In this document: positions 36,094-54,146 of the stretch, piece after piece | How the letters are laid out: each line of letters starts with the position of its first letter | Numbering within the stretch: position 1 is the stretch's first letter | From: Candidatus Dormiibacterota bacterium | GTDB taxonomy: Bacteria > Patescibacteriota > Saccharimonadia > UBA4664 > DATLOE01 | Assembly (NCBI GenBank): GCA_035536395.1 | Contig: DATLOE010000006.1 | Span: 6,899-70,898 of the forward strand | DNA: 64,000 nt | Direction of reading: 5' to 3' | The notes under the pieces: model-generated | Database searches by the model: none | What the model was told of the DNA's origin: nothing | What the model saw: only the letters and a program-made list of their open reading frames with translations | Position numbers and translations under genes: made by a program

Positions 36094-36128
36094 CTTGAAA
36101 AAACAGCTTTTTTCAGGTATATTTGTTT

Positions 36129-36533
36129 GGCTAGATTGCCAGATGGCCGCCCGTAAATTACGGGAGGAAAGTCCGGACAGCATAGAGCAATGACGGTTGC
36201 TAACGGCAACCGGGAGTAAGTTCGAGCATTATTTCTCTCGAGAAAATGATACTTGAGCCAAGCCTAGGGAAAGTGCCACAGAAACGATACCGCCCAGCTT
36301 GCTGGGTAAGGGTGAAAAGAGTGGGGCAAGAGCCCACAACTTCGGTTGGTGACAACCGAAGGAGGTAAACCCCGTCTGCTGCAAGGCTGCCAGCCATACG
36401 CGATTGCTCGTCGCGGCTGGCGTGAGTGCCGCTTGAGCCGATCAGCAATGCTCGGCCCAGATAGATGGTCATCCAACCCGGTCCGCCAGTTGGTGGAGCG
36501 GGGGACAGAATCCGGCTTATAAGCAATCTAGCC
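36129..36533 (+). ncRNA. rnpB: RNase P RNA (bacterial type A)
   Basis: The P1 helix ggctagattgc pairs with gcaatctagcc. Conserved GGGAGGAAAGTCCGGAC, AAGGGTGAAAAGAGTGGGGCAAGAGCCCAC and ACAGAATCCGGCTTATAAG elements are present. Confidence 0.85.
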
Positions 36534-36563
36534 AGAAAGCCTCTAGGGGCTTTCTGTTTTTTG
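36534..36563 (+). terminator. Rho-independent terminator after rnpB
   Basis: agaaagcctctaggggctttctgtttttt. Confidence 0.7.
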
Positions 36564-40296: not shown

Positions 40297-41172
40297 TTAA
40301 TTTTTGAAGTTTCCGGACTGTTTTTCGGTAATAAACCGTATGCGTCTGTCGGTCAGGCGAATTACAATCGGAGTTTTACCGGCCAGATTGCCGTCTATCA
40401 TTACTTGTGTTTCGGGGTTAATTTCGATGACAGCCCGATCGGCTTTGACTCTGGTGCTAATATTCTCCAATCTACCAGGAGTTTTCTTCAGCAGCTGCCA
40501 GGCATAATTTGTGAGATCCCAGCGCGAAGGTTTTTCGGTTAGGCTAATGATTAGTTTATTGTCGGCCAGAGGGTTGTCGAACTTTTGATTGGCAACGGTC
40601 AGGCTGAAGAGGGGGGATGTAAGTTCATATTTACTATCAACCGTAATCTTGCACTTTAGTGGCTTAAAATTTTTGGCTTGGTCGAAACTGGTCTTAAACT
40701 GTTTAATCTTGTCTTTCAAACCTTCCTTGGAGCCATTTTCCGCCCGATCTTCCAGCTGGGTTTCAAAGCCCAGCACCAAGGTCGATAAAAAGAATTTTTG
40801 TCCGGCGGCAATTAGTCCGTAGCTTGTAATTCGGCGGGCGGCCAGCACCTCACAGGCCTGTTGCCAATCATGGATACCCAAATGACCCGCCAGCAGGTTA
40901 GAACTACCGGTTGGAATAATGCCTATGGCAGTATTATTCTCTCGGCTTATACCATTAATAACTTCATTCACCGTATCATCTCCGCCGACAGCCACAATGG
41001 TATTCATTCCCTTTTTTACAGCCAGCTCCGCTATTTTGGCGGCATCGCCAGGGCCGGTAGTCTTAGCAAACTCTCCACTAATACCCAGCTCTGTTAGCCT
41101 GCTTCTTAGCTTGTCCTGAATGTTATTAATCGCCCCTTTACCAGCGGCTGGATTGATGATGTAGTAGTACAT
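40297..41172 (-). CDS. Diacylglycerol kinase catalytic-domain lipid kinase (YegS/DagK family)
   Basis: MYYYIINPAAGKG...IVAVGGDDTVNEV. Confidence 0.75.
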   Translation of the reverse strand: MYYYIINPAAGKGAINNIQDKLRSRLTELGISGEFAKTTGPGDAAKIAELAVKKGMNTIVAVGGDDTVNEVINGISRENNTAIGIIPTGSSNLLAGHLGIHDWQQACEVLAARRITSYGLIAAGQKFFLSTLVLGFETQLEDRAENGSKEGLKDKIKQFKTSFDQAKNFKPLKCKITVDSKYELTSPLFSLTVANQKFDNPLADNKLIISLTEKPSRWDLTNYAWQLLKKTPGRLENISTRVKADRAVIEINPETQVMIDGNLAGKTPIVIRLTDRRIRFITEKQSGNFKN

Positions 41173-41564
41173 TAGTCTTCAGCAGGCTCTTTGTTTGTGG
41201 CTTCTGTCTGTGTTTGAGCTGGCTTCATTTTGCTATTACCGATAAATATACCACCGCGCTCTATGCTTAAGAGAGAGGCGGTAATGTCACCGGCTACTTG
41301 CCCAGTGGCTGTAATAGTAGCTCCTTCGGTAGCCTGAATGTCTCCCTTTTGCTGCCCGGCTATTGTGATGTTTTGCCCAGCAACATCACCTGCTATTTGA
41401 GCATTGACTCCAATTGTCACATCGCGGGCCGATTTTACATTGCCTTCCAGGTGGCCGTCTATTAAAATATCACCCTCACTGGCTAAATTACCTTTGAGCC
41501 GAACATTAGCGCCGATAATAGTATCTGTTTCGGTAACTCCTAATAAATCATGTTTTTTTGGCAT
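41172..41564 (-). CDS. Bactofilin
   Basis: Repetitive beta-helical segments such as GDILIDGHLEGNVKSARDVTIGVNAQIAGDV are typical of CcmA/bactofilin. Confidence 0.7.
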   Translation of the reverse strand: MPKKHDLLGVTETDTIIGANVRLKGNLASEGDILIDGHLEGNVKSARDVTIGVNAQIAGDVAGQNITIAGQQKGDIQATEGATITATGQVAGDITASLLSIERGGIFIGNSKMKPAQTQTEATNKEPAED

Positions 41565-42045
41565 CTGATTTCTCCTTACTGTGCGGCTTTCTTTTTGAGG
41601 CCTGTTTAAGTGCTTTTAATTCTTCCTCGGCGAGGGCATGCTTACTTTTACCGTAATCAATTGGTTTTACATATACCCGTGTACCGGTTCGGCTGTGGAT
41701 GCTAGTTATGACATAGCCGGAATCATGTGCATCCAGGACCGCCAGCACAAAGCTTTGATCCCCACCGGTATCACCAAATGGATTGAACCTCACAATCGAA
41801 ATTTTTTGCGATGACAGGCTTTGGGATTCGGCTAATTGGCGGTAGAGAGTGTCGAGTTTTTTCAGGTGGGATTCGGTTGAATTAACCGATTGAAAATATT
41901 TGGCCAATGTCTTTTCCAGCTCACCGCCCTCGGTTGTAAATGCAGCATTAAATCGCTGGCGCAGCCTGATAGTTTGCCATACCGCGAAGGCTGCTGTAGC
42001 AATACTTGCACCGCTGATTAGCCAAATTGTATTAACGTTCTCCAC
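41548..42045 (-). CDS. Hypothetical membrane-anchored protein
   Basis: 165 aa with an N-terminal TM helix. Apparently in an operon with bactofilin, with overlapping ends. Confidence 0.4.
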   Translation of the reverse strand: MENVNTIWLISGASIATAAFAVWQTIRLRQRFNAAFTTEGGELEKTLAKYFQSVNSTESHLKKLDTLYRQLAESQSLSSQKISIVRFNPFGDTGGDQSFVLAVLDAHDSGYVITSIHSRTGTRVYVKPIDYGKSKHALAEEELKALKQASKRKPHSKEKSDAKKT

Positions 42046-42119
42046 GCCAAACAGTATAGTGTGTGGGGCAAACTCTCTGCAACTGCAGCCAGCCCCAGTT
42101 GTGTTAAAATTAGTCTATT

Positions 42120-42356
42120 ATGGCTAGAAAAACCAAGCGCAAAAAAAGTAAAAAACAGAAGCGCCAGGAACTTAGTACAGTTGTACCGCCGGCTATGCCA
42201 GCCGTGCAAGCCAGCGAGGAGCCGCCGCAATCGCTTGAACTTCCCACAGACCACAAGCTAAGTTATGTGAAGACCGACATTAAAAGGATAGTGTGGTTAC
42301 TGGCCACCGCTATCATTCTGCAAATAACTATTTGGTACGCCTTTCAACTACAGTAG
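42120..42356 (+). CDS. Small basic hypothetical protein with a C-terminal TM helix
   Basis: 78 aa. The Lys/Arg-rich N-terminus suggests nucleic-acid or ribosome association. Support is weak. Confidence 0.3.
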   Translation: MARKTKRKKSKKQKRQELSTVVPPAMPAVQASEEPPQSLELPTDHKLSYVKTDIKRIVWLLATAIILQITIWYAFQLQ

Positions 42357-43853
42357 TCAGAGTTTTGGCCGATACTGCAAAGCTTCAGCCAGGTGGCAGG
42401 TTTGTATATTCTGGCTTCCTGACAGATCGGCTATGGTTCGGGCTACCCTTAAAACTCTCATATACGACCTAGCTGATAAATTCAGACTGGAGAGCGCTTG
42501 GCGTTCCAGGCGGCGGCCTTCTTCATCCAGTTGGCAGTGGGTCTTAATTTGAGCATTATCCATACCTGCGTTGATGTTGGCAGATTTTAGGCGCTTGGCT
42601 TGAATGAGCCTGGCAGTATGTACTCGTTCGGCTACAGACTTGCTTGGTTCGGCGGTTGCTTTAGCAATCATACTTTCTTGTTCGACCGGCGCCACATCTA
42701 CGAATAGATCGACCCTGTCTAGTAGCGGGCCGGAGACCTTCTTGCTGTATCGTGCTACTTGTGCCGGGCTACAGACACATTCCCGCTTAGCATCGCCAGC
42801 ATAGCCGCAGGGGCAGGGGTTCTGGGTGGCTACCAACATAAATCGGGCCGGATAGGTGATAGAACCAGAAGCTCTAGCAATACTTACCACACCGTCTTCT
42901 AAGGGCTGGCGCAGCACCTCCAGTACATGGCGGGGGAATTCCGGCAGCTCGTCGAGGAAGAGTACTCCCCGGTGGCTCAGACTGATCTCGCCTGGCTTAG
43001 GCCAAGTGCCGCCGCCAATCAGAGCTACATCGCTGGCCGTGTGGTGAGGGTTTCGGAAAGGCCTTTGATAGCCCGCCTCAGCCGACAGACCGGCTAGGCT
43101 ATATAACTCAGCGATTTCGATTGTTTCTTCTAAGCTTGGTGCAGGTAGGAGCCCGGCCAAGGCTCTGGCTAGCAAGGTCTTGCCGGTGCCGGGAGGGCCG
43201 GAGAGCAGAATATTATGGCCGCCCGCCGCCGCTACTTCAATAGCTCGCTTGGCTTGGTTCTGGCCGTAAATATCTTGCATATCGACAGCCGGTTTAGCCT
43301 GAGCTTTAACCTTCCTAGCAGAGCCGGAATAGGGCTTTACTGCCTCTTCTTTCGCCAAGTGCCGGTACAGCTGCCGCAAGGACTTAAGGGGGTAGAGGGT
43401 TAACCCTTCCACTAAAGAAGCCTCCTGAATGTTAGCTTCGGGTACGAATATCTCAGATATACCGCTGATTTTGGCTAGCCGTACTGCCGAGAGTACGCCC
43501 TTGGTGGAGCGCACCGAACCATCCAGTGCCAGCTCTCCTGTAAAGAGATAATCGTTTGGGTCTATACTGAGCTGTTCGCTGGCTGTGAGTATAGCAACAG
43601 CAATACTCAGGTCATAAGCCGTGCCGTCTTTAGGCAGGTCGGCCGGAGCAAGATTAAGGGTAATGCGCTTGGGGGGCAGAAATAGGCCACTGTTCTTAAT
43701 AGCGCTGCGTACGCGATCTTTGGCTTCGGCTACGGCTTTATCTCCTAGACCTACTACCGTAAAGGAGGGGAGGCCGCTGGCCAGATCGCACTCCACATCG
43801 ATGAGTTGTCCTTTTACACCTATACAGGTTGGGGCGAGCACTTTAGCTGGCAT
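42357..43853 (-). CDS. YifB/ComM-family Mg-chelatase-like AAA+ ATPase
   Basis: Lon-like N-domain, Walker A GPPGTGKT, and a C-terminal Mg_chelatase_C region. A GGAGA RBS precedes the MPAKVLAP start. Confidence 0.8.
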   Translation of the reverse strand: MPAKVLAPTCIGVKGQLIDVECDLASGLPSFTVVGLGDKAVAEAKDRVRSAIKNSGLFLPPKRITLNLAPADLPKDGTAYDLSIAVAILTASEQLSIDPNDYLFTGELALDGSVRSTKGVLSAVRLAKISGISEIFVPEANIQEASLVEGLTLYPLKSLRQLYRHLAKEEAVKPYSGSARKVKAQAKPAVDMQDIYGQNQAKRAIEVAAAGGHNILLSGPPGTGKTLLARALAGLLPAPSLEETIEIAELYSLAGLSAEAGYQRPFRNPHHTASDVALIGGGTWPKPGEISLSHRGVLFLDELPEFPRHVLEVLRQPLEDGVVSIARASGSITYPARFMLVATQNPCPCGYAGDAKRECVCSPAQVARYSKKVSGPLLDRVDLFVDVAPVEQESMIAKATAEPSKSVAERVHTARLIQAKRLKSANINAGMDNAQIKTHCQLDEEGRRLERQALSSLNLSARSYMRVLRVARTIADLSGSQNIQTCHLAEALQYRPKL

Positions 43854-43980
43854 TTTATTTCTCCGCCGCCCGTTAATTAGTAATAAAACGATGTTAGCGA
43901 ACAAAAAGCGAACTGTCAAATGTCTTATGTTGTCAATGCTTATTTACAAATGCTACAAATCAGCGTACAATCTATAAGCT

Positions 43981-44781
43981 ATGAATGAAGAACTGGTAAA
44001 ACAAGTAGAAGATCTCGGCCTGAGCAACAAGGAAGCCCGGGTTTATCTAGCCAACCTAATGCTTGGCCCTTCTGGCGTGCAGCAGATAGCAGAAGCCGCA
44101 GGTATAAAGCGGGTTACTACCTACGTTATACTCGAATCTTTAGTCGGCCTGGGGCTGGTCAGCCAGACTACCCATGCCAAAAAAACTTTATTTAATGCGG
44201 AAGACCCTCAACATCTCAGCCGTCTACTGGAGAAGAGGGAGGAAGCGCTTAAGGAGCAGAAGCAGAACCTTAGCGAATTGCTGCCAGATATAAAGAAGCT
44301 TAAATCGCTTTCTAAAGATGTTCCAGCAGTAAAATTTTATGAAGGTGCAGAGAGTATGATGACTATTTATAAGTCTTTGCCTCTCGTTTTTAAAAAATAC
44401 AATGTTAAGGAAAGTTTCGGTATCAGCAATTTGGATCAACTATATGCTTCCTTTCCTGAGATAAAAGATGCCCAGGCTAACCCCTCTCGTGTTGATGCCA
44501 AAGTAAAGAGCAGATTTATTTACACCACTAAAGAAGGACCAATTATTAAAGAATCAGATTCGGTCGCAATACGCGAATCAAGGTTTGTGCCTTTAGATAA
44601 ATTCCCCTTCAATTGTGACATTGGTATAGTGGGGGATTTTATCTCGGTCATGTCACTTGAAACACCACGGCCAATGGGAATTACTATTGAAAGCGCAGCT
44701 CTGGCTAAGGGGTTCAAGGCTGTGTTTGAGCTGGCCTGGGAAGGCGCTGAAAAGTATGATAAAGAAAATAAGAGTAAGTAA
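43981..44781 (+). CDS. TrmB-family transcriptional regulator
   Basis: The N-terminal wHTH LGLSNKEARVYLANLMLGPSGVQQIAEAAGIKRVTTY is typical of TrmB. TACAAT lies 9 nt upstream of the ATG. Confidence 0.6.
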   Translation: MNEELVKQVEDLGLSNKEARVYLANLMLGPSGVQQIAEAAGIKRVTTYVILESLVGLGLVSQTTHAKKTLFNAEDPQHLSRLLEKREEALKEQKQNLSELLPDIKKLKSLSKDVPAVKFYEGAESMMTIYKSLPLVFKKYNVKESFGISNLDQLYASFPEIKDAQANPSRVDAKVKSRFIYTTKEGPIIKESDSVAIRESRFVPLDKFPFNCDIGIVGDFISVMSLETPRPMGITIESAALAKGFKAVFELAWEGAEKYDKENKSK

Positions 44782-44795
44782 GTTAAAACTTGTAG

Positions 44796-44824
44796 TTGAC
44801 TTTAAGCCGTAATAGGAGTACAAT
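44796..44824 (+). promoter_or_regulatory. Consensus sigma70 promoter (-35 TTGACT, 17-nt spacer, -10 TACAAT) driving a non-coding transcript
   Basis: ttgactttaagccgtaataggagtacaat. Confidence 0.6.
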
Positions 44825-44829
44825 CGGTT

Positions 44830-45277
44830 TTGTCTCTTTGGCATCGGCCTATGGTTTATGCCAAAAGAAGTGCAGTACAAAAAGCTTCTTCGCCCCGTCG
44901 AAGAAGCCGACCAGGCAAGGAGAGTGGGATGCCATGTTCGGTCTGTAGATCGACACGCACATGGCGCCCCCGCTGAAAGCGGTTTCTTCACGGCTACCTA
45001 GCTGTAGTTCCGCTTCGGCGGGGCGTCAAAGACTTCTTCTGCCTATGCTGTCGCTTAGGAGTGACGCCCCGCGCGTCAGCTAAGGGAAGAAGACAGGGAA
45101 TCCTGAGCATGGACTGCCGGGCCAAGGATTGGCTCGAGAGTCACCTCAGGAACCCATTGCACCGAGCGGCGCCGGGGATCGGTCCCAAGGACTTTGTCCA
45201 AAAGACCGTCCCCGGCCACGCTTCTCAACTTTGAGCTTTTAGCTCTCAGTAACCTCCAGTTCTGCTGGAGGTTTTTC
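44830..45277 (+). ncRNA. Candidate structured ncRNA of unknown family, about 450 nt
   Basis: A promoter lies upstream, and the intrinsic terminator cctccagttctgctggaggttttt lies at 45253-45276. It contains GC-rich hairpins with GAAA and UUCG tetraloops (cccgctgaaagcgg, ccgcttcggcgg) but no credible ORF. Confidence 0.45.
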
Positions 45278-45331
45278 AATATAAGCTCCTTGGACCGGTT
45301 TAGTCTATCGGCTCTGGATATATCAGGGTTT

Positions 45332-46639
45332 TTACTTTTTAGGCAGGCGCGCAGGTAGTCTAAACCGTCTTTTAGGCGGTTTTTTAGCGTTAATATGGCC
45401 CTTTAGTACCGTTTCATACAGTCTGGCCAGTTGCTTGGCTTGGCGCTCGGCAGAGTACTTAGCCGCAAGCTTAATGCTGGCTTCACCCATATCCTGGCGC
45501 AGCCGATCGTTCGTCAGCACCTGGCTGAGTCTTCGGGCAAAGCTGCGCGCGTTATTACGGGAGAATAGACCATTAACCTTATCTATAACTACATTAGTGA
45601 TGTCGTGATCGATCATAACAATCGGCAATCCGGCCCAAGCCGCTTCCTGGATAACCAGGCCTTGGGTGTCGGTGGTGGAAGGGAAGGCAAAGACGGTGGC
45701 TACCTTATAGGCTGCCCCCAGCCGACTTCTTTCTATTCGGCCGGTAAATACGACGCGATCGGCTACACCCAGGTTCTTAGCCTGCCTCACCAGCTTGTCC
45801 TGCTTCTCGTGGCGGCCGATTAATACCAGCTTAGCCTTAGGGTGGCTGGGCGCAATTATAGCAAAGGCGGTAATTAACAGATCCACGCTTTTTTCATCTC
45901 CCAGCCGGCCGACGAAGAGGATTACCTGATCGCTCTCTTTTAACCCATATCTCTCACGGAACAGCTTAGCAGCCCTAGTGGTCGTAGTAATTTTGTCAAC
46001 ACCTGTCGGTAAAACCCTGATTAAAGACTTGGTTTTCCACGATCGCAGCTGCTGCTCGATTTTGATAGAGGGTACAATAACCCGATCACAATAGTTATGC
46101 AGCATAGTAATGCCTTTAACGATTATTTTCTGATTCCAGGCATCCACATTACGTTCCGGCTTTATGCTGCTTAGAGCAAATCGTAGGTCGTCCATTTTGC
46201 CCCCGGTAATTAAAGGGGAAAGCATAGAAAGGGCAATCGCGCCAGGCAAGACCTGGGGGTAGTAAGTAACGTACTCATATAAGTCTGAGTGATAGGTGGT
46301 AACAAGGGGTTTGCGGTTGTGTATGGCGTAGTAGGCTCCTAGTAGGCCGATTTGGCCAGGGGTATGGTAATGCACGATGTCAGGGTTTATCTTTTTTATC
46401 TTCAGCAGAGCCTGCGGGGGGAAGAATATACTAGTCAGATAGTCATCGAATACCAGGCCCTTGACTGCCGGAAACCTAAGGATGTTAGGGGATTTCTCCT
46501 TATAACGAAGCCCAGGAGCCGGGGCGATCACGTGAACCTCGTGGCCCAGCTTTTCCAGCTCAACCCGAAAAGTCTCTATGGAGTAAGCTACTCCATCAGC
46601 TCTGGGCAGGTATGAATCTGTGAAAAAAGCTATTTTCAT
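45332..46639 (-). CDS. GT4-family glycosyltransferase
   Basis: MKIAFFTDSYLPRADGVAYSIETF... The GT-B fold has the C-terminal E-x7-E region. Confidence 0.75.
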   Translation of the reverse strand: MKIAFFTDSYLPRADGVAYSIETFRVELEKLGHEVHVIAPAPGLRYKEKSPNILRFPAVKGLVFDDYLTSIFFPPQALLKIKKINPDIVHYHTPGQIGLLGAYYAIHNRKPLVTTYHSDLYEYVTYYPQVLPGAIALSMLSPLITGGKMDDLRFALSSIKPERNVDAWNQKIIVKGITMLHNYCDRVIVPSIKIEQQLRSWKTKSLIRVLPTGVDKITTTTRAAKLFRERYGLKESDQVILFVGRLGDEKSVDLLITAFAIIAPSHPKAKLVLIGRHEKQDKLVRQAKNLGVADRVVFTGRIERSRLGAAYKVATVFAFPSTTDTQGLVIQEAAWAGLPIVMIDHDITNVVIDKVNGLFSRNNARSFARRLSQVLTNDRLRQDMGEASIKLAAKYSAERQAKQLARLYETVLKGHINAKKPPKRRFRLPARLPKK

Positions 46640-48499: not shown

Positions 48500-48623
48500 T
48501 TCCACTCCTAATGCTCTGTTGTTAAGGTGGCAAGATGTTACCACCAACCTGATAATTGGTCAACATTCATACACTGGGGGTATTAGTGGCAACAAAAAAG
48601 CACCAGATAAACTGATGCGTTTT

Positions 48624-49011
48624 TGGTGGAGCTGCGGGGAATTGCACCCCGGTCCGAAAGCTAACAAAATGTTCTTCTACAGGCTTAGACCGCTTAGCTG
48701 GGGTAAGCCCCGCTTAGGTAACGATCTGTAAGCGGACCAAATAACCGTTACTGCAGCCTAATGTCTTAAAAGCAGCCGTTAGGCGCCAGCTGCTTAGCAG
48801 CCAGAAAATATAACACCGGCGAGCCCCCATCTGGCGTCAGGTGCCGATGGCTTACGGGTTTAAGCGTAAGCTGGTGCGAGCTGAAGACCGCTAAAAGCAG
48901 TCTTAACCCGCGAAACAATCGAGTTGACGGTTGTTTATGGGTGGATTTAACGCATTCCTGCGGCCTGCAAAACAAATTGAAAATGTACTTTCGTCGAAGC
49001 TTATCAGCCCC
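48624..49011 (-). ncRNA. ssrA: tmRNA (SsrA)
   Basis: The 5' end GGGGCTGATAAGCTTCGACG and the 3' end GGACCGGGGTGCAATTCCCCGCAGCTCCACCA closely match the E. coli tmRNA ends (GGGGCUGAUUCUGGAUUCGACGG ... GGGUUCAACUCCCGCCAGCUCCACCA). The tag reading frame was not confidently resolved. Confidence 0.8.
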
Positions 49012-49079
49012 ATAGCGAACTATATTAACAGGTTTGGGCGGTAATTTCAAGGAGTGGGGGTGCAGTATGGCTCTTATGT

Positions 49080-50018
49080 TTGCAAGGTGCTATATTAAAG
49101 CAAATGAGGAAGAACATAACCGCCAGACGGGTTGTAATAACTTCTTTTCTAGTCGATCTGAGCGACGTAATCTTAAATGTGACAGCGGCTATCTTATCCG
49201 GCAGTGTGGTGGTACTAACCGAGGCCATGCAGGGCGCTGCGGATTTGCTGACGGCTGGCCTTTTGTGGATGGGGGTCAGTCGCTCAAAGAGGCGGGCAGA
49301 TAGGAGGCATCGCTTCGGCTATGGCAAAGAATTATTCTTCTGGATACTTATGGCCGGTATTTCGATGTTTTTCTTAACTGCCGGGGTCTCTTTTTACCTG
49401 GGCCTGCAGCGCTTTTTGCACCCGCGGCCGATTCATAACCTGGAGTTTGCGTACTTAGTACTGGCAATCGGGGTGGTGACTAATGCTTATGCCCTACGCC
49501 TCAGCTTGCATCGCCTGCATATTAATCGCCATACCCGAGTGGAGGATTTATGGAGCAGGGTTGGCGGCTCCAGCTTTGTAGAGACAAAAGCTACCACCAT
49601 TCTGGATCTAATGGGCACCACAGCTGCTGCTCTAGGCCTAGTAGCATTGGTGGTATACGGCGTCACCGGCGATCTAAGGTTTGATGGTATCGGCGCCATG
49701 GTAGTCGGATTGGTATCTGGTATATTCGCGATTCTTCTAATACTTGAGGTTAAGGAATTCATTATCGGTCGCAGCGCTCCTCAAGAGCTAGAAGAACGCA
49801 TCCGTAAGGTAGCCGAATCGGTAGAGGGTATAAAGAAGGTTCTAGACCTTAGAACCATGCAAATGGGCTCAGACAGGGTGCTGGTGAATATGGAGGTACA
49901 TATAAACAGAAACCTAAATGCCAAACAAATTGAGAAGCTAATGGATGATCTCAAGAAAAGGGTTAAAACCAGTGTGCCAGAAGTACAGCATATTCAAGTA
50001 GAGATAGAAACGCCTTAA
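49080..50018 (+). CDS. Cation diffusion facilitator (CDF) family transporter
   Basis: Six TM helices plus a C-terminal cytoplasmic domain. The TM2/TM5 motifs are typical of CDF. Confidence 0.7.
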   Translation: MQGAILKQMRKNITARRVVITSFLVDLSDVILNVTAAILSGSVVVLTEAMQGAADLLTAGLLWMGVSRSKRRADRRHRFGYGKELFFWILMAGISMFFLTAGVSFYLGLQRFLHPRPIHNLEFAYLVLAIGVVTNAYALRLSLHRLHINRHTRVEDLWSRVGGSSFVETKATTILDLMGTTAAALGLVALVVYGVTGDLRFDGIGAMVVGLVSGIFAILLILEVKEFIIGRSAPQELEERIRKVAESVEGIKKVLDLRTMQMGSDRVLVNMEVHINRNLNAKQIEKLMDDLKKRVKTSVPEVQHIQVEIETP

Positions 50019-50048
50019 TACATGTGCTTTTGGTACAATACTTAAGCT

Positions 50049-51353
50049 ATGTATGACGAACTAGAGATTTATTCGGACGAAATAACCCCCAAGCCAAGGA
50101 GGAGCCAGCGGTTGAAGAAATTCTTAATCGGTTTTGTGGCCCTGGCTTTGGTTGGTGCGGCAGTCTTTGTGCTACTGAACTTATTTAAGACATCTGTTAA
50201 CCCTTTTAGTTTCGGTTTACTACGAGGCGAGCTAGATGGCCGGGTAAATATAATGCTACTGGGGGTGGGTGACCCGGGCCACGCTGGTGAAACCCTGACT
50301 GACACCAATATACTCATGAGCGTTAACACCAGGACCAAGCAGGTTTCTACCGTCAGCATACCTCGTGATCTGAGAGTGGCCTTGCCAAAGGGTGGCTATG
50401 GCAAGATTAACCAAGCGCATTCCAAGGGGGGTATACCAGGCGCCGAGGAGGTATTTGAGGAAACATTGGGCGTACCAGTTCACTATTACGTCAGGGCCAA
50501 CTTTACGGGGCTCAGGCAGGCAGTTGATGCGGTGGGAGGCATTGATATTGAGGTTAAGGAGTCCCTATACGACCCGGAATATCCCTGTGATAAAAATCAG
50601 TATCGCAGCTGTGGCTTCAGGCTGGCAAAGGGCCAGCAGCATATGAATGGCACGACGGCGCTTAAGTATGTCCGTTGCCGTAAGGGCAATTGTGGCGATG
50701 ACTTTGGTAGGGCACAACGCCAGCAGGAGGTGATGCAGGCTATTCGCGCGAAGGCGACCGGGCTGGATACCATTACTAACCCTTACCGGCTGGGCAAGCT
50801 GATTGCGGCTACAGGTAGTAATATCAAAACCAACTTAAGTGTAAACAACATCCTGCGCCTAAATGACCTAACCAAAGATACGGCGCAAGATCAAATGATA
50901 GGTGTGGTGCTTAGCCTGCAGCCAGACGGGTTCTTGGTGTCTTCAAAGACGAGCAGCGATCTGGTGCCCAGGGGTAATGATTTCGATGACATCCATTCCT
51001 TTGTGCAGAAGATTTTTAGCCTCGGCCCCGTCTGGACAGAGCATCCCACTCTTCAAATCGAAAACGGTACTACTACCATGGGAACTGCCGGGCAGGTTAA
51101 ATCTAAGATCGAGCGGGATGGCTACACCATTAATGTCACCGGTCTCGCCAATGCTTTAAAGCGTGATTATACCGCCACCCAGATTATCGATTACACTGGT
51201 GGCAAGAAGAAGCATACGATTGCTTACCTGGAAAAGCTGCTGGGGGTTAAGGCGGTGCCTCCGCCCACACCAGTTAAGGTGCCCCTGGCCGACTTTCGAG
51301 TGATCGTGGGAACTGATTTTGTACAAGCTAACACCAAGCCCTCCGCGCAGTAA
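50049..51353 (+). CDS. LCP (LytR-CpsA-Psr) family cell-wall glycopolymer transferase
   Basis: N-terminal TM, then NIMLLGVGDPGHAGETLTDTNILMSVN...SIPRDL...GYGKINQAHSKGG, the LCP core. Confidence 0.8.
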   Translation: MYDELEIYSDEITPKPRRSQRLKKFLIGFVALALVGAAVFVLLNLFKTSVNPFSFGLLRGELDGRVNIMLLGVGDPGHAGETLTDTNILMSVNTRTKQVSTVSIPRDLRVALPKGGYGKINQAHSKGGIPGAEEVFEETLGVPVHYYVRANFTGLRQAVDAVGGIDIEVKESLYDPEYPCDKNQYRSCGFRLAKGQQHMNGTTALKYVRCRKGNCGDDFGRAQRQQEVMQAIRAKATGLDTITNPYRLGKLIAATGSNIKTNLSVNNILRLNDLTKDTAQDQMIGVVLSLQPDGFLVSSKTSSDLVPRGNDFDDIHSFVQKIFSLGPVWTEHPTLQIENGTTTMGTAGQVKSKIERDGYTINVTGLANALKRDYTATQIIDYTGGKKKHTIAYLEKLLGVKAVPPPTPVKVPLADFRVIVGTDFVQANTKPSAQ

Positions 51354-51387
51354 TGGCAATTCTTATCTGACCTGCTAAAATAGCGGT

Positions 51388-51753
51388 ATGTTAGCATTAG
51401 CATTTTTAGAGTGGTGGTATGGCCGTGGCTGGAAGCTTTTTGCAGGTAAACAGCTAGGCAGTATTAAGCATCTTATGTTGGCTTTCTCCGTGCCGTTACT
51501 AGCTAGGACTCTGTTTGCACCTTGGAAGCAGATTATTTCTTACAGCGACGACTCACTGGCAATGAATATGAGGGTACTTTTAGATAACACGGTTTCGCGG
51601 GTGGTTGGCTTCGGTGTGCGAATAATTGTTTTGTTCGCAGCCTTTTTACTGTCTGCAATTTGGCTTGCAGTTAGCTTGGCTGGTTTAATTCTGTGGCCAT
51701 TATTACCAATAGCATCAATAGTGCTAATAATAGGGGGCTTAGTATGGATGTAA
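51388..51753 (+). CDS. Small membrane protein
   Basis: 121 aa with 3 TM helices. It overlaps the start of the following Clp-like gene. Confidence 0.4.
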   Translation: MLALAFLEWWYGRGWKLFAGKQLGSIKHLMLAFSVPLLARTLFAPWKQIISYSDDSLAMNMRVLLDNTVSRVVGFGVRIIVLFAAFLLSAIWLAVSLAGLILWPLLPIASIVLIIGGLVWM

Positions 51754-54146
51754 CCCGGGTAAAAATCACAACACCCCGTTTAAAGAAGGCTAAATTGGCC
51801 GAATATTTTAGCCGAAGGGTGTTGCTTGCGGCTAAAATCATTACTTTAGTTTTGGCGGTAGGCGCACTTTATCTTCTAGCAAGCGGATCTGGATTTGGCT
51901 GGACACTCATGGGCTTAGCTCTAGCTGGGTTGATATTGCAAGCTTGGGCGAATTGGGACCTTTCCAATCTGCCGCCATCCAAACCGCTAAGCGAGGCCAG
52001 TAAGCTAGATGACGTATTGACCGCACCTTTGCTGGCCCATTATCCCAGCATCAGCAAGACAGCCGAACTCTGGGCGGTGATTAAAAAACAGCCCGAAGCC
52101 GTGTTTTTAATGAACCGCCTAACGATGCATCCGGAAGAAGTAGAGCAGATTATTCAATCTAGCCCAGTTGGCATTACCCAGGTTTGGGAGGCTGCAAAGG
52201 GGCTGGCGCTGCACGAAGGCAGTCGGGTAATTGACGCAGCCCATGTATTTGCAGCCCTGCTTGCAGTAAGTCCTGGCTCAAAACTCTACTTTGATCAAAT
52301 CAAGCTAGATATTGATGACCTTGAAGCCGGCCTCAACTGGCTTCGTCAGATAAAAACTATGTCCGATGAAGCCAAAAAGAAGGGATACTTTGGTGGAATT
52401 GGCAGAGATTGGTCGGCCGGATACACTCCCGTGCTCAAGCGGTTTGGTGTGAATATCAGTCGCAGTATAGAAGCCGGTGCTAGCTACAGAGTGACGAGTA
52501 GCCGGCAGGAAACAATTGATAGGATGCTAACATATCTGCAAAGCTCTTCTCGGTCCAGCGTGGCTTTGATCGGTCCCCCTGGTTCTGGTAAAACCACATT
52601 AGTTTACGGTTTTGCAGAGAGAATCCTTAAAGGCCGTCAGGTTGGCAACCTGGCATACTACCAGGTGGTGGTGCTCAACCCCTCACTTATTATCTCAAGC
52701 CAAACTTCAATTGAAGAGACGGTTTTAACCTTGCTAGGAGAAGCGGGCCACGCCAAAAACATAATTCTTTTCCTAGATGATGCTCAACTGTTTCTTAACC
52801 AAGGGGTGGGGTCGGTTGATCTCTCGCAAGTTTTGCTGCCTATTTTACAACAGAGCAATATTAAGCTGGTTATGGCGCTGACAGACACGGACTGGCAGAA
52901 GCTAAAGGCGGCTAAACCGGCCCTGGCTACCATTCTTAACCATGTGGCGGTTCCCAATATGAGCGAGCCGGATGTGGTTGATACCCTGCAGGAGTCGGCT
53001 GTTTATATTGAGCATAAAAGCCGGGCTTTAATTACTATGCAGGCTATTAAAGAAGCTCTACGTTTGTCCGATCGATACCTGCAAGAGGAGGCCTTCCCAG
53101 GCAAAGCCGTACGCTTACTGAGCGACGCTTCTAATTATCCTGACGGCAGTTTAATCACCGCCAAATCTGTTCAGAGCGCTATTGAATCGATGACTGGCGT
53201 AAAGGCCGTATCGGCGGATGAGACCGAGAAGAAAGAACTGGTAAACCTAGAAGAGCGGATACATAAACAAATGGTCAATCAATCACGGGCGGTAAGTGTG
53301 GTGGCTAATGCCCTCCGACGGGTGCGATCTGGGGTTGGTAACCCAAAGCGCCCTTCGGGTAGCTTTTTATTCCTCGGGCCTACAGGAGTGGGTAAGACCG
53401 AGCTTGCCAAGGCTCTCGCCAATGTTTACTTCGGCGGCGCCGAAAAAATGATACGAGTCGATATGAGTGAATACCAGCAGCCAAGCGATGCCACTAGGCT
53501 GCTGGCGGCCTCTCCAGACAAATCAAGCGGTTCAACTCTAATTAGTAGTGTTCGATCCCAGCCTTTTAGTGTGGTGCTGTTAGATGAGGTAGAGAAGGCT
53601 CACCCAGATATTCTTAATCTTCTTTTACAGCTACTCGATGAAGGCCACTTAACAGATTCAGATGGTCGCAAAGTTTCTTTCAAGGAATGTATTATAATCG
53701 CTACCTCTAACGCCTCGGCCGATGAAATAAGGAGGCGAGTAGAAGCCGGCGAAGACCTGGCAGACTTCGAAAAGACGATTATTAGCCAGCTGACCAGTAG
53801 TCATCAGTTTCGCCAAGAGCTTCTGAATCGCTTTGACGAGATCGTCTTATTCCGGCCACTTTCAAAAAATGAGCTAGCTCAGGTAGTAGAGCTTATGTTA
53901 GCTGAGGTAAACAACAATCTTAAACCACAGAAACTATCTGTTGAGCTTACTCCGGGTGCCATCCAATGGATGATTGAGGCCGGGTACGACCCCAGGCTGG
54001 GAGCCCGTCCAATGAGGAGGGTAGTGCAAAAAGCAGTAGAGAACGTGGTGGCTAAGAAGATCCTAGAGAATAAGATAACTTCAGGTGAAACCGTTCGGCT
54101 AGATGTATCTGATATCCGGGAAACAGATAATACTACTTCTCAATAA
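51744..54146 (+). CDS. Two-domain AAA+ Clp/Hsp100-family ATPase (ClpC/ClpB-like) with an N-terminal double-TM anchor
   Basis: AGGGGG RBS with the ATG at 51744. Two TM helices in the first ~90 aa. Clp_N-like repeat, Walker A ALIGPPGSGKTT (D1) and FLFLGPTGVGKTELAKALA (D2). Confidence 0.7.
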   Translation: MDVTRVKITTPRLKKAKLAEYFSRRVLLAAKIITLVLAVGALYLLASGSGFGWTLMGLALAGLILQAWANWDLSNLPPSKPLSEASKLDDVLTAPLLAHYPSISKTAELWAVIKKQPEAVFLMNRLTMHPEEVEQIIQSSPVGITQVWEAAKGLALHEGSRVIDAAHVFAALLAVSPGSKLYFDQIKLDIDDLEAGLNWLRQIKTMSDEAKKKGYFGGIGRDWSAGYTPVLKRFGVNISRSIEAGASYRVTSSRQETIDRMLTYLQSSSRSSVALIGPPGSGKTTLVYGFAERILKGRQVGNLAYYQVVVLNPSLIISSQTSIEETVLTLLGEAGHAKNIILFLDDAQLFLNQGVGSVDLSQVLLPILQQSNIKLVMALTDTDWQKLKAAKPALATILNHVAVPNMSEPDVVDTLQESAVYIEHKSRALITMQAIKEALRLSDRYLQEEAFPGKAVRLLSDASNYPDGSLITAKSVQSAIESMTGVKAVSADETEKKELVNLEERIHKQMVNQSRAVSVVANALRRVRSGVGNPKRPSGSFLFLGPTGVGKTELAKALANVYFGGAEKMIRVDMSEYQQPSDATRLLAASPDKSSGSTLISSVRSQPFSVVLLDEVEKAHPDILNLLLQLLDEGHLTDSDGRKVSFKECIIIATSNASADEIRRRVEAGEDLADFEKTIISQLTSSHQFRQELLNRFDEIVLFRPLSKNELAQVVELMLAEVNNNLKPQKLSVELTPGAIQWMIEAGYDPRLGARPMRRVVQKAVENVVAKKILENKITSGETVRLDVSDIRETDNTTSQ

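Follow-up and report, generated by a model that had tools for sequence, protein, structure and literature searches.

Bacterial structured RNAs longer than about 400 nucleotides (nt) are rare, and most of them, including RNase P RNA, transfer-messenger RNA (tmRNA), OLE, ROOL and GOLLD, opened new biology. Bacteria of the candidate phyla radiation (CPR, or Patescibacteria) make up a large share of bacterial diversity and have minimal genomes, and their RNA biology is almost unexplored. The subject here is a segment of a 64,000-nt stretch of contig DATLOE010000006.1. The whole stretch is called the window, and all coordinates are positions in it. The segment, 44796-45282 on the + strand, lies between a trmB-like gene and a convergent pair of family 4 glycosyltransferase (GT4) genes. 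On balance, we read it as a self-contained gene, running from its own promoter to an intrinsic terminator, for a structured RNA of about 450 nt that belongs to an undescribed class and whose function involves the loading of ribosomes. The loading site is a Shine-Dalgarno (SD) sequence followed by an open reading frame (ORF) of three or four codons, designated the mini-ORF.

Several described systems resemble this arrangement in part. Like the segment, tmRNA (SsrA, RF00023) is a stable promoter-to-terminator RNA of a few hundred nt with pseudoknots, and in both a hairpin loop holds the stop codon of a tiny reading frame. In the segment, however, translation would start from an SD and AUG rather than at a resume codon entered in trans, and the three or four codons specify an unconserved peptide and no degradation tag. 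A genuine tmRNA, moreover, is encoded 3.5 kb from the segment (48624-49011, - strand). Leader-peptide attenuators, of the trp type and of the erm and ARE-ABCF type, likewise place an SD-linked very short ORF upstream of mutually exclusive pairings, and the 3' strand of hairpin P2, a G-rich strand, and the 3' strand of pseudoknot stem S1 here give the same 1:2 / 2:3 / 3:4 pattern. The differences are that the "3:4" helix is a pseudoknot stem without a U tract, that about 200-400 nt more of structure follows, and that the switch is a putative one.

Passages of PMC5737220 describe how, in the hbs mRNA of Bacillus subtilis, a ribosome at a strong SD near the 5' end shields the downstream RNA from 5'-exonucleolytic decay. 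The hbs element and stabilizing SD (STAB-SD) sequences share with the segment a strong SD near the 5' end of the transcript, but they stabilize protein-coding mRNAs, and a STAB-SD needs no start codon, whereas here the body of the RNA is non-coding and both AUG and stop codon are kept. Minigenes of two to six codons, such as phage lambda bar, consist of an SD, an AUG, a few codons and a stop, and encode peptides without a function of their own. The same parts occur in the segment; lambda bar-type minigenes, however, act by peptidyl-tRNA drop-off and tRNA sequestration and have no large conserved fold, and the segment gives no sign of toxicity. Finally, OLE, ROOL, GOLLD, raiA and HEARO resemble the segment in being unusually long, GC-rich relative to the genome, restricted to certain lineages, and built of many hairpins and a pseudoknot, with a function that the genomic context does not reveal. 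The segment matches none of their Rfam models, and it has a conserved 5' core with a variable 3' half. To our knowledge, a conserved ribosome-binding site (RBS) with a mini-ORF does not occur in any of these five classes.

Transcription unit and its recurrence in related loci

Loci for comparison were gathered from species-representative genomes (46), from metagenomes (64), and from assemblies encoding close TrmB homologues (11). In some 45 related loci the RNA unit stands 3' of the trmB-like gene, and with few exceptions it faces a convergent glycosyltransferase gene. The synteny with trmB-like and GT4 genes that an initial annotation of this DNA had raised is therefore present, the unit being kept in place and orientation, with promoter and terminator.

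The near-consensus promoter of the initial annotation, TTGACT-17 nt-TACAAT (44796-44824, + strand), is of the sigma-70 type, agrees with consensus at 10 of 12 positions, and predicts a transcription start at about 44831-44833. By itself the match is not significant, since promoter-like sites number four per 2 kb where 2.0 are expected. Among the relatives, 41 loci carry a promoter of the form TTGAC-N17-TAnnnT no more than 120 nt from the trmB stop codon, whereas of 33 loci in more distantly related Patescibacteria only 3 have one there. The genes for RNase P RNA (36131-36535, + strand) and tmRNA, which the initial annotation had correctly placed elsewhere in the window, were examined for the same layout at 36095-36556 and 48600-49050. 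Both have a TTGAAA-17-TAnAnT promoter whose -10 box ends 8-10 nt before the start of the RNA, and a hairpin-plus-U terminator immediately 3'. Simple promoter and terminator scans are therefore valid for this organism, and the promoter in the segment is credible because the comparisons with its relatives and with these two genes agree.

The intrinsic terminator proposed for the 3' end is also present, as the hairpin AACCUCCAGU-UCU-GCUGGAGGUU (45251-45278, + strand), in which a 10-bp stem (45251-45273) with a 3-nt loop is followed by U residues to 45277. A simple promoter and terminator scan did not list it, in our opinion because two of the U residues are taken up in the extended stem. Terminators occur at the equivalent place in relatives, and many loci have a strong one at the end of the gap. 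The relative L001, for example, combines a TTGACT-17-TAATAT promoter of its own with a 12-bp terminator.

The mini-ORF

In the window RNA, the SD AAGGAGAG (44917-44924, + strand) is followed by AUG UUC GGU CUG UAG (44934-44948, + strand), a frame encoding MFGL that is identified from family statistics and a test of reading frame. An equivalent SD occurs in 33 of the 41 promoter-bearing loci. A scan of positions +40 to +170 for an SD, a spacer of 3-10 nt, AUG or GUG, two to five codons and a stop found the complete arrangement in 21 of these 41. The control region of the same RNAs and the reverse complement each yielded it in 1 of 41, and 200 shuffles gave a mean of 0.9 loci and a maximum of 4. 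The description of the transcript as non-coding in the initial annotation thus stands as regards conserved protein, of which there is none, and does not cover the SD and ORF of three or four codons in these 21 loci.

The SD-linked ORFs are bimodal in length, 22 of them having 3-4 codons, none 5-10, and the remainder 11-43. Spacing from SD to start codon is mostly 4-9 nt, AUG strongly predominates over GUG, and all three stop codons are used. Past SD-linked start codons, 13 stop trinucleotides lie at +9 and 12 at +12, and frame 0 holds 26 against 6 and 9 in the other two frames, whereas start codons of the same RNAs that have no SD are followed by stops in the proportion 41:40:39 over the three frames. 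A frame bias that appears only after SD-linked starts argues for selection on initiation and then immediate termination, not on the peptide. The peptides are in fact unrelated (MFGL, MVTH, MSGL, MGN, MGG, MVH, MSQ, MGAF and others), those of the closest relatives being MVTH*, MSGL*, MFGG*, MCGG*, MGGG*, MSGA* and MTGV*, and five further instances in newly fetched loci add MFGG, MCI, VVS and MGS. From these comparisons of sequence we infer that the ribosome-loading site, comprising SD, AUG and an in-frame stop three or four codons on, is kept by selection and that the peptide is not.

In the predicted fold the mini-ORF is enclosed by hairpin P2 (44926-44970, + strand), whose stem contains the start codon and whose apical loop presents the stop codon (UGUA/G). 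The same geometry is found in relatives, and the stop codon is more exposed than the start codon (predicted accessibility 0.55).

A conserved pseudoknot

The initial annotation had described a segment of about 450 nt dense in GC-rich hairpins, and the folding energy agrees with it. The segment has a minimum free energy (MFE) of -212.6 kcal/mol, where dinucleotide shuffles give -157.4 +/- 6.0 (z = -9.24; none of 100 shuffles as good); the reverse strand of the segment gives z = -7.7. The G+C fraction is 0.59-0.61 inside the segment and about 0.40-0.50 in the flanks.

The center of the conserved fold is a predicted H-type pseudoknot, with all strands on the + strand. Stem S1 pairs GCGGGGCGUCA (45018-45028) with UGACGCCCCGC (45062-45072), a helix based on covariation and on covariance model (CM) searches. 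An A-rich linker (L1, AAGA) and the 5' strand of stem S2, CUUCUUCU, occupy 45029-45054, the S2 strand being 45033-45040 and extendable to 45054. The 3' strand of S2 (45073-45092, with the core GGAAGAAG at 45085-45092) adjoins the 3' strand of S1, an abutment that in the model would make the pseudoknot compact.

Evidence that this structure is selected comes from several comparisons. Two relatives similar enough to be aligned by sequence, L002 and L005 (68% identical), differ on both sides of 20 of 155 predicted pairs, which nevertheless remain paired. Within the 190 nt after the start codon, the best S1/S2 pseudoknot equals or beats 54-60 of 60 dinucleotide shuffles in each of 11 RNAs of the window's subtype (subtype I, defined below), and in these 11 S1 always starts 56-90 nt past the start codon. 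A generic pseudoknot descriptor gave scores of 38-51 for coding controls and 49-82 for members, so that the score alone does not separate the family from background; we relied for this reason on shuffles of the anchored region and on CM searches.

Alignments of the core made with MAFFT were structurally inconsistent, and so we began with a CM of the single window sequence, in which S1 was the only structure, and iterated it. All matches of this single-sequence model lay at the syntenic position: L001 (E = 7e-7), L113 (E = 0.015), and L002 and L005, whose E-value of 0.7 is not significant alone. Two iterations added L047, L116 and L048 (0.015) and, more weakly, L118 (0.08) and L114 (1.1). The iterated models detect the pseudoknot core in 10 distinct loci, each time at the syntenic position, and within the 64-kb window they find one copy only.

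Covariation, which the initial annotation had named as a check, is seen in the collected homologues. On a six-sequence alignment fitted to the CM, S1 is 96.9% paired, 5 of its 11 pairs change on both sides, and its covariation score is 0.43, against 0.17 +/- 0.05 for shuffles (0 of 500 as high) and at most 0.12 for slid controls. In tables curated by hand for S1, S2, Hx and P7, most positions have between two and four types of pair. Stem S2 was scored on such a table, since the CM alignment puts its 3' strand in differing columns in L002, L005 and L116.

Distribution and common plan of the family

Where the identity of the TrmB-like proteins is roughly 44% or more, trmB is followed by a gap of about 400-800 nt that holds no long ORF, and the next gene is usually convergent. 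Independent gene callers leave 580-730 nt uncalled between trmB and the glycosyltransferase gene in most of the 11 extra assemblies; in L115, L118 and L120 they place a short ORF (79-93 aa) without a Pfam match inside the gap. ComM lies upstream in 10 of the 11 extra loci, these being the ones with a Pfam-hit upstream gene listed. Loci of other Patescibacteria whose TrmB homologues have 40% identity or less are without the GC-rich gap, and in a few members of the clade that lack the RNA unit (such as L019 and L032) trmB directly adjoins the next gene. The family thus appears, in the data examined, to be restricted to one clade of Saccharimonadia. About 0.5 kb of conserved non-coding DNA is costly in minimal CPR genomes, and a CM for the family would annotate a recurrent unexplained gap in the genomes of Saccharimonadia.

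Primary sequence is nearly unconserved. Against the syntenic loci (46, later about 120), nhmmer finds only L001 (E = 0.003), and blastn a single 30-nt stretch, 93% identical, also in L001. Sequence search alone would therefore have missed the family.

Subtype I comprises the window, L001, L002/L050/L120, L004, L005, L047, L048, L111/L112, L113, L114/L115, L116, L118 and L055. Its plan begins with hairpin P1, the SD, the very short ORF in P2 with its stop codon at the apical loop, and one or two variable hairpins. There follow the small hairpin Hx, the H-type pseudoknot, variable GC-rich hairpins that include the P7 clamp, a CUCAAC-like motif, and the terminator. In the pseudoknot, S1 has 7-12 bp, the linker is A-rich, and a strand that begins with CUUC is paired to one, immediately 3' of S1, that ends in GAAG. 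The conserved core is the 5' half only, the 3' half being variable apart from the P7 clamp.

One locus, L121, is a hybrid: about 170-275 nt past the trmB stop codon (L121:2440-2550), a "CCCUGCC...GGCAGGG" hairpin of the second subtype is followed by a pseudoknot of the window type with an AAAAG-CUUC linker. The two subtypes accordingly form one family.

In more distant Saccharimonadia, an SD and AUG are found at the equivalent position in L023, L024, L028, L054, L068/L076, L072, L073 and L074. The ORFs there, 100-280 nt past the trmB stop codon, have 29-48 codons and encode a basic amphipathic C-terminus (..RVLxRhxxxLxRR..), and in L054 and L072 the unit resembles a plain small gene (an ORF and a terminator in about 175-205 nt). 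These longer ORFs may be real small proteins and the ancestral state.

Comparison with known RNA families and coding potential

The whole window was compared with Rfam 15, whose families include 6S, SRP, OLE, ROOL, GOLLD, HEARO and raiA RNAs, riboswitches and ribozymes. At gathering scores the matches were RNase P RNA (257 bits), tmRNA (99 bits) and seven tRNAs, with none in the segment. When the region was scanned permissively (E up to 10), the only matches were fragments of microRNA (miRNA) families and of TLS-PK1, all far below gathering scores, the best being mir-316 with 24.5 bits against a threshold of 80. The TLS-PK1 hit (E = 0.11) and the miRNA hits are chance matches to the S1 helix. 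Eleven syntenic relatives gave tmRNA and nothing at the locus. The initial annotation had been unable to assign a family, and this outcome agrees with it: neither the region nor the 11 relatives have a match at gathering score or at E < 0.01. ARAGORN found no tRNA-like domain in 44700-45400. Identity as a tmRNA was rejected on this count, and because there is no match to RF00023 even at E up to 10, the 5' hairpin is local, and the 3' end is a terminator.

No ORF in the region has a Pfam match; the ORFs are, as the initial annotation held, short or antisense. Against all homologous gaps, tblastx found no protein-level similarity (best E = 0.04). A protein-coding gene or pseudogene was rejected on both grounds, and the protein-like conservation that would have told against a non-coding RNA is thus lacking in the homologous loci. 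A dual-function small RNA (sRNA) of the RNAIII, SgrS or SR1 type was set aside as well, the mini-ORF peptide not being conserved in sequence. A sponge of the CsrB/RsmZ type is not indicated either, with 112 GGA motifs in nine family RNAs where dinucleotide shuffles predict 102.

Regulatory leaders were considered too. No co-directional gene stands 3' of the segment, so that a riboswitch or other cis-regulatory 5' leader is rejected, as it had been in the initial annotation. For a leader-peptide attenuator, the short SD-linked ORF is there, but a downstream gene on the same strand is not, the next gene being convergent in the window and in most loci. A terminator-like hairpin, CCGCUGAAAGCGG-UUUCUUC (44970-44989), might have served in transcription attenuation and is not conserved in relatives.

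Literature searches found no such RNA described in Saccharibacteria or CPR. Weinberg et al. 2017 have a single TM7 motif, the small lysM-TM7 leader (PMC5737381). The class therefore appears to be undescribed, and the unit appears absent from Rfam 15.

Proposed function and alternative explanations

Taken together, the conserved unit and the frame statistics lead us to infer that the RNA itself is the functional product and that its function needs ribosome loading on the mini-ORF. Beyond this, any specifically ribosome-dependent mechanism is put forward tentatively. One possible, if doubtful, form of it is a new housekeeping-type RNA of CPR bacteria, in which the RBS would recruit a 70S ribosome that is held on a start-stop frame of three or four codons, and so would set the fold of the pseudoknot or tether the RNA to ribosomes; the tethering variant would amount to ribosome sequestration or regulation. 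Two roles of the ribosome seem the most likely. In protection, an initiating ribosome near the 5' end would shield a long untranslated RNA, as for the hbs mRNA of B. subtilis, and the early stop codon would keep the ribosome from unfolding the functional domains. In sensing, the ribosome would melt P2 and free a competitor strand for the G-rich strand shared by Hx and S1, and whether the pseudoknot forms would then hinge on translational status, by the logic of the trp attenuator but with the RNA fold as output and no downstream gene. Both roles fit the anatomy, and they are not mutually exclusive. As to origin, the RNA may derive from a small-protein mRNA whose ORF was truncated to the minimum that still loads a ribosome, and the family is a possible example of a non-coding RNA evolving from, or into, such an mRNA. 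If true, the combination of a covarying pseudoknotted fold with a strictly maintained frame of three or four codons would mean that an RNA can employ the ribosome in a new manner.

A number of observations weigh against a ribosome-loading RNA of this kind. The ends of the transcript are predicted, from sequence signals. The predicted accessibility of the SD is no greater than the RNA average (0.34 against 0.34), and the start codon is often within a stem, so that efficient translation is not obvious. The mini-ORF is missing in about half of the loci and thus does not extend to the whole family: the SD is lost in L005, L002 has a 12-codon ORF and L111 a 9-codon ORF, and more distant loci carry ORFs of 29-48 codons instead. 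A crude simulation of ribosome occupancy, in which nucleotides of the ribosome footprint were forced unpaired, produced no consistent structural shift; its partition function is nested, S1 and S2 cross, and S1 receives near-zero probability. The covariation figures lean towards structure, since the model shaped the six-sequence CM alignment that was fitted to it and the helices in the hand-curated tables were picked for each sequence, and shuffle controls overstate significance since the sequences are related. The less biased structural evidence is the comparison of L002 with L005, the anchored pseudoknot shuffles, and the CM searches. Finally, the neighborhood shows no evident function-defining partner.

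Some of these points would be met if the RNA were a structured non-coding RNA in which the SD-like, AUG and stop elements serve structure alone, with no ribosome involved; a purine-rich strand could pair with the recurrent CUUC tracts, and UGA or UAG could simply lie in a loop. The unexceptional accessibility of the SD, the usually paired AUG and the half of the family without a mini-ORF are all in keeping with this, as are the pairing of GGAGAG with UUCUUC (44984-44989) in the MFE fold of the window and the fact that the mini-ORF nucleotides (YCGGY) also build the P2 stem. Structure, however, has no reason to respect a reading frame, and the stops at +9 and +12 are in frame (26 against 6 and 9) where the controls are unbiased. 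Nor would it account for an SD-AUG spacing in the functional range of 4-9 nt, for the use of all three stop codons, or for AUG being far commoner than GUG, and by inspection the putative anti-SD partner is not conserved between relatives. We therefore consider this explanation unlikely. That the unit is instead an mRNA, or a dual-function sRNA, for a small protein is quite improbable. An out-of-frame AUG at 44929 opens a 15-codon ORF (44929-44976, encoding MPCSVCRSTRTWRPR) and is better spaced to GGAG (6 nt) than the AUG of the mini-ORF, and its counterpart in L004, 138-179 nt past the trmB stop codon, encodes MRCPACSHHRVAS in the same frame, with a CxxC motif in common. The ORF could also be a homologue of the basic peptides of 29-48 aa in distant loci, which are SD-linked and have similar amphipathic C-termini, and L054 and L072 do look like plain small genes. 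On the other side, the 44929 frame is different in L001 (20 aa, no Cys) and missing from L116, L047 and L048, each with one AUG only, and the CxxC likeness probably reflects shared nucleotides. There is no protein-level similarity across the family, an ORF of 11-48 codons is the chance expectation for a fixed AUG in sequence of 60% GC, and a 15-aa peptide would leave some 300 nt of conserved, covarying downstream structure unexplained.

It is distinctly unlikely that the segment acts only in cis, as a long structured 3' untranslated region of trmB or as a buffer or terminator zone between convergent units. The unit does nearly always lie between convergent genes, and with no terminator between the trmB stop codon (44781) and the promoter (44796), trmB transcripts would read into it. 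Against this are the separate near-consensus promoter in 41 loci, the clade members without the unit (L019, L032) in which trmB stands directly against the next gene, and the consideration that a terminator zone has no need of about 450-650 nt with a conserved pseudoknot, SD and mini-ORF. Very improbable, lastly, is a highly divergent member of a known family (6S, SRP, tmRNA-like, OLE, ROOL, GOLLD, raiA, or a riboswitch) missed by the CMs. CPR bacteria are poorly represented in Rfam seed alignments, and the promoter and terminator are like those of the housekeeping RNAs of this genome, yet Rfam does detect RNase P RNA and tmRNA here, and the permissive scan, the 11 relatives and ARAGORN all gave the negative results reported above. 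The 5' and 3' ends are not paired, unlike those of 6S RNA or tmRNA, and the co-directional downstream gene that a riboswitch would need is absent.

Other features of the predicted fold

The remaining parts of the window RNA, all on the + strand, are described from 5' to 3'. The 5'-terminal hairpin P1 (44833-44868) appears in both MFE and centroid folds; in relatives the transcript begins (U)GUYCUUC and the tip of the hairpin reads GCG-YCY-CGC. Hairpin P1b, GCUUCUUCG-CCCCGU-CGAAGAAGC (44884-44907), has a C-rich loop that is one of several complements of the G-rich strand at 45017-45025. Beyond P2 are two small predicted hairpins whose sequences are not conserved in relatives, P3 (CCGCU-GAA-AGCGG, 44970-44982) and P4 (44990-45005). 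Hx (CCGC-UUCG-GCGG, 45010-45021), whose 3' strand overlaps the outer pairs of S1, is present in all subtype-I members, with loops UUCG, CUCG, CACG, AACA, UACA, CUAG, GUCA or GACA. The initial annotation had reported both GNRA and UUCG tetraloops; the cUUCGg loop of Hx is there, whereas 44970-44982 forms a GAA or UGAAA loop and no clean GNRA.

Downstream of the pseudoknot, the variable 3' domain begins with P6 (45096-45155), a long irregular hairpin present in MFE and centroid folds. P7 (45164-45223) has a conserved GC clamp, GCCGGGG / CCCCGGC, with compensatory changes in seven relatives, and a variable tip. Taken over the whole RNA, compensatory changes accompany the conservation of the 5'-terminal hairpin, the small hairpin with the pseudoknot after it, a GGCCGGGG hairpin and the terminator. 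The predicted small hairpin P8 (45228-45250) is preceded by the CUCAAC motif, which recurs ahead of the terminator in relatives.

Four C-rich segments (44891-44897, 44963-44971, 45010-45013 and 45065-45072) are able to pair with the one G-rich segment GGCGGGGCG (45017-45025). The first, the loop of P1b, forms a 13-bp helix with it in the MFE fold, the second, the P2 3' strand, is a further possible partner, and the overlap of Hx and S1 on one G-rich strand was found in every subtype-I member. The RNA also contains the direct repeats AAAAGCUUCUUC (44880) and AAAGACUUCUUC (45028) and several CUUC/GAAG tracts. These repeats and tracts, together with the competing C-rich strands, suggest alternative conformations.

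Genomic neighborhood

The flanking genes are as the initial annotation described them. Upstream, the trmB-like gene (43981-44781, + strand) encodes a helix-turn-helix regulator of 266 aa (Pfam PF01978, E = 2e-12), and both convergent genes 3' of the RNA encode GT4 enzymes (PF00534, PF13439), the nearer at 45332-46639 on the - strand. The GT4 neighbor is context only, there being no cis regulation on the same strand. A 17-nt imperfect inverted repeat, CGGUUUAGUCUAUCGGC / GCAGGUAGUCUAAACCG (45296-45367), spans the 3' end of the convergent GT4 gene and may be its terminator or a second barrier separating the convergent units.

The TrmB-like protein is 100% identical to one protein from a metagenome-assembled genome (MAG) at NCBI, labeled "Candidatus Dormibacteraeota bacterium." Its relatives of 45-67% identity are all from Saccharimonadales / Saccharimonadia, as are the homologues and syntenic contigs generally, and on these sequence affinities the MAG is probably mislabeled or mis-binned. 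A relative of known structure was sought by sequence for the TrmB-like protein and not found.

Further upstream (40297-43919) is an envelope and housekeeping neighborhood with a diacylglycerol-kinase-like gene, bactofilin, DUF4446 and ComM/YifB, and beyond the tmRNA (49080-54146) are a cation diffusion facilitator (CDF) transporter, LytR-CpsA-Psr and a Clp ATPase. The genes of these two regions include no mobile-element, reverse transcriptase, Cas or toxin genes that would point to a mobile or defense RNA. The tmRNA gene and trmB occupy opposite strands in the window but share a strand in eight syntenic loci (L001, L004, L005, L013, L015, L016, L022 and L031), where tmRNA lies 4-6 kb downstream of trmB. 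The difference in strand suggests a local inversion or rearrangement in the lineage of the window.

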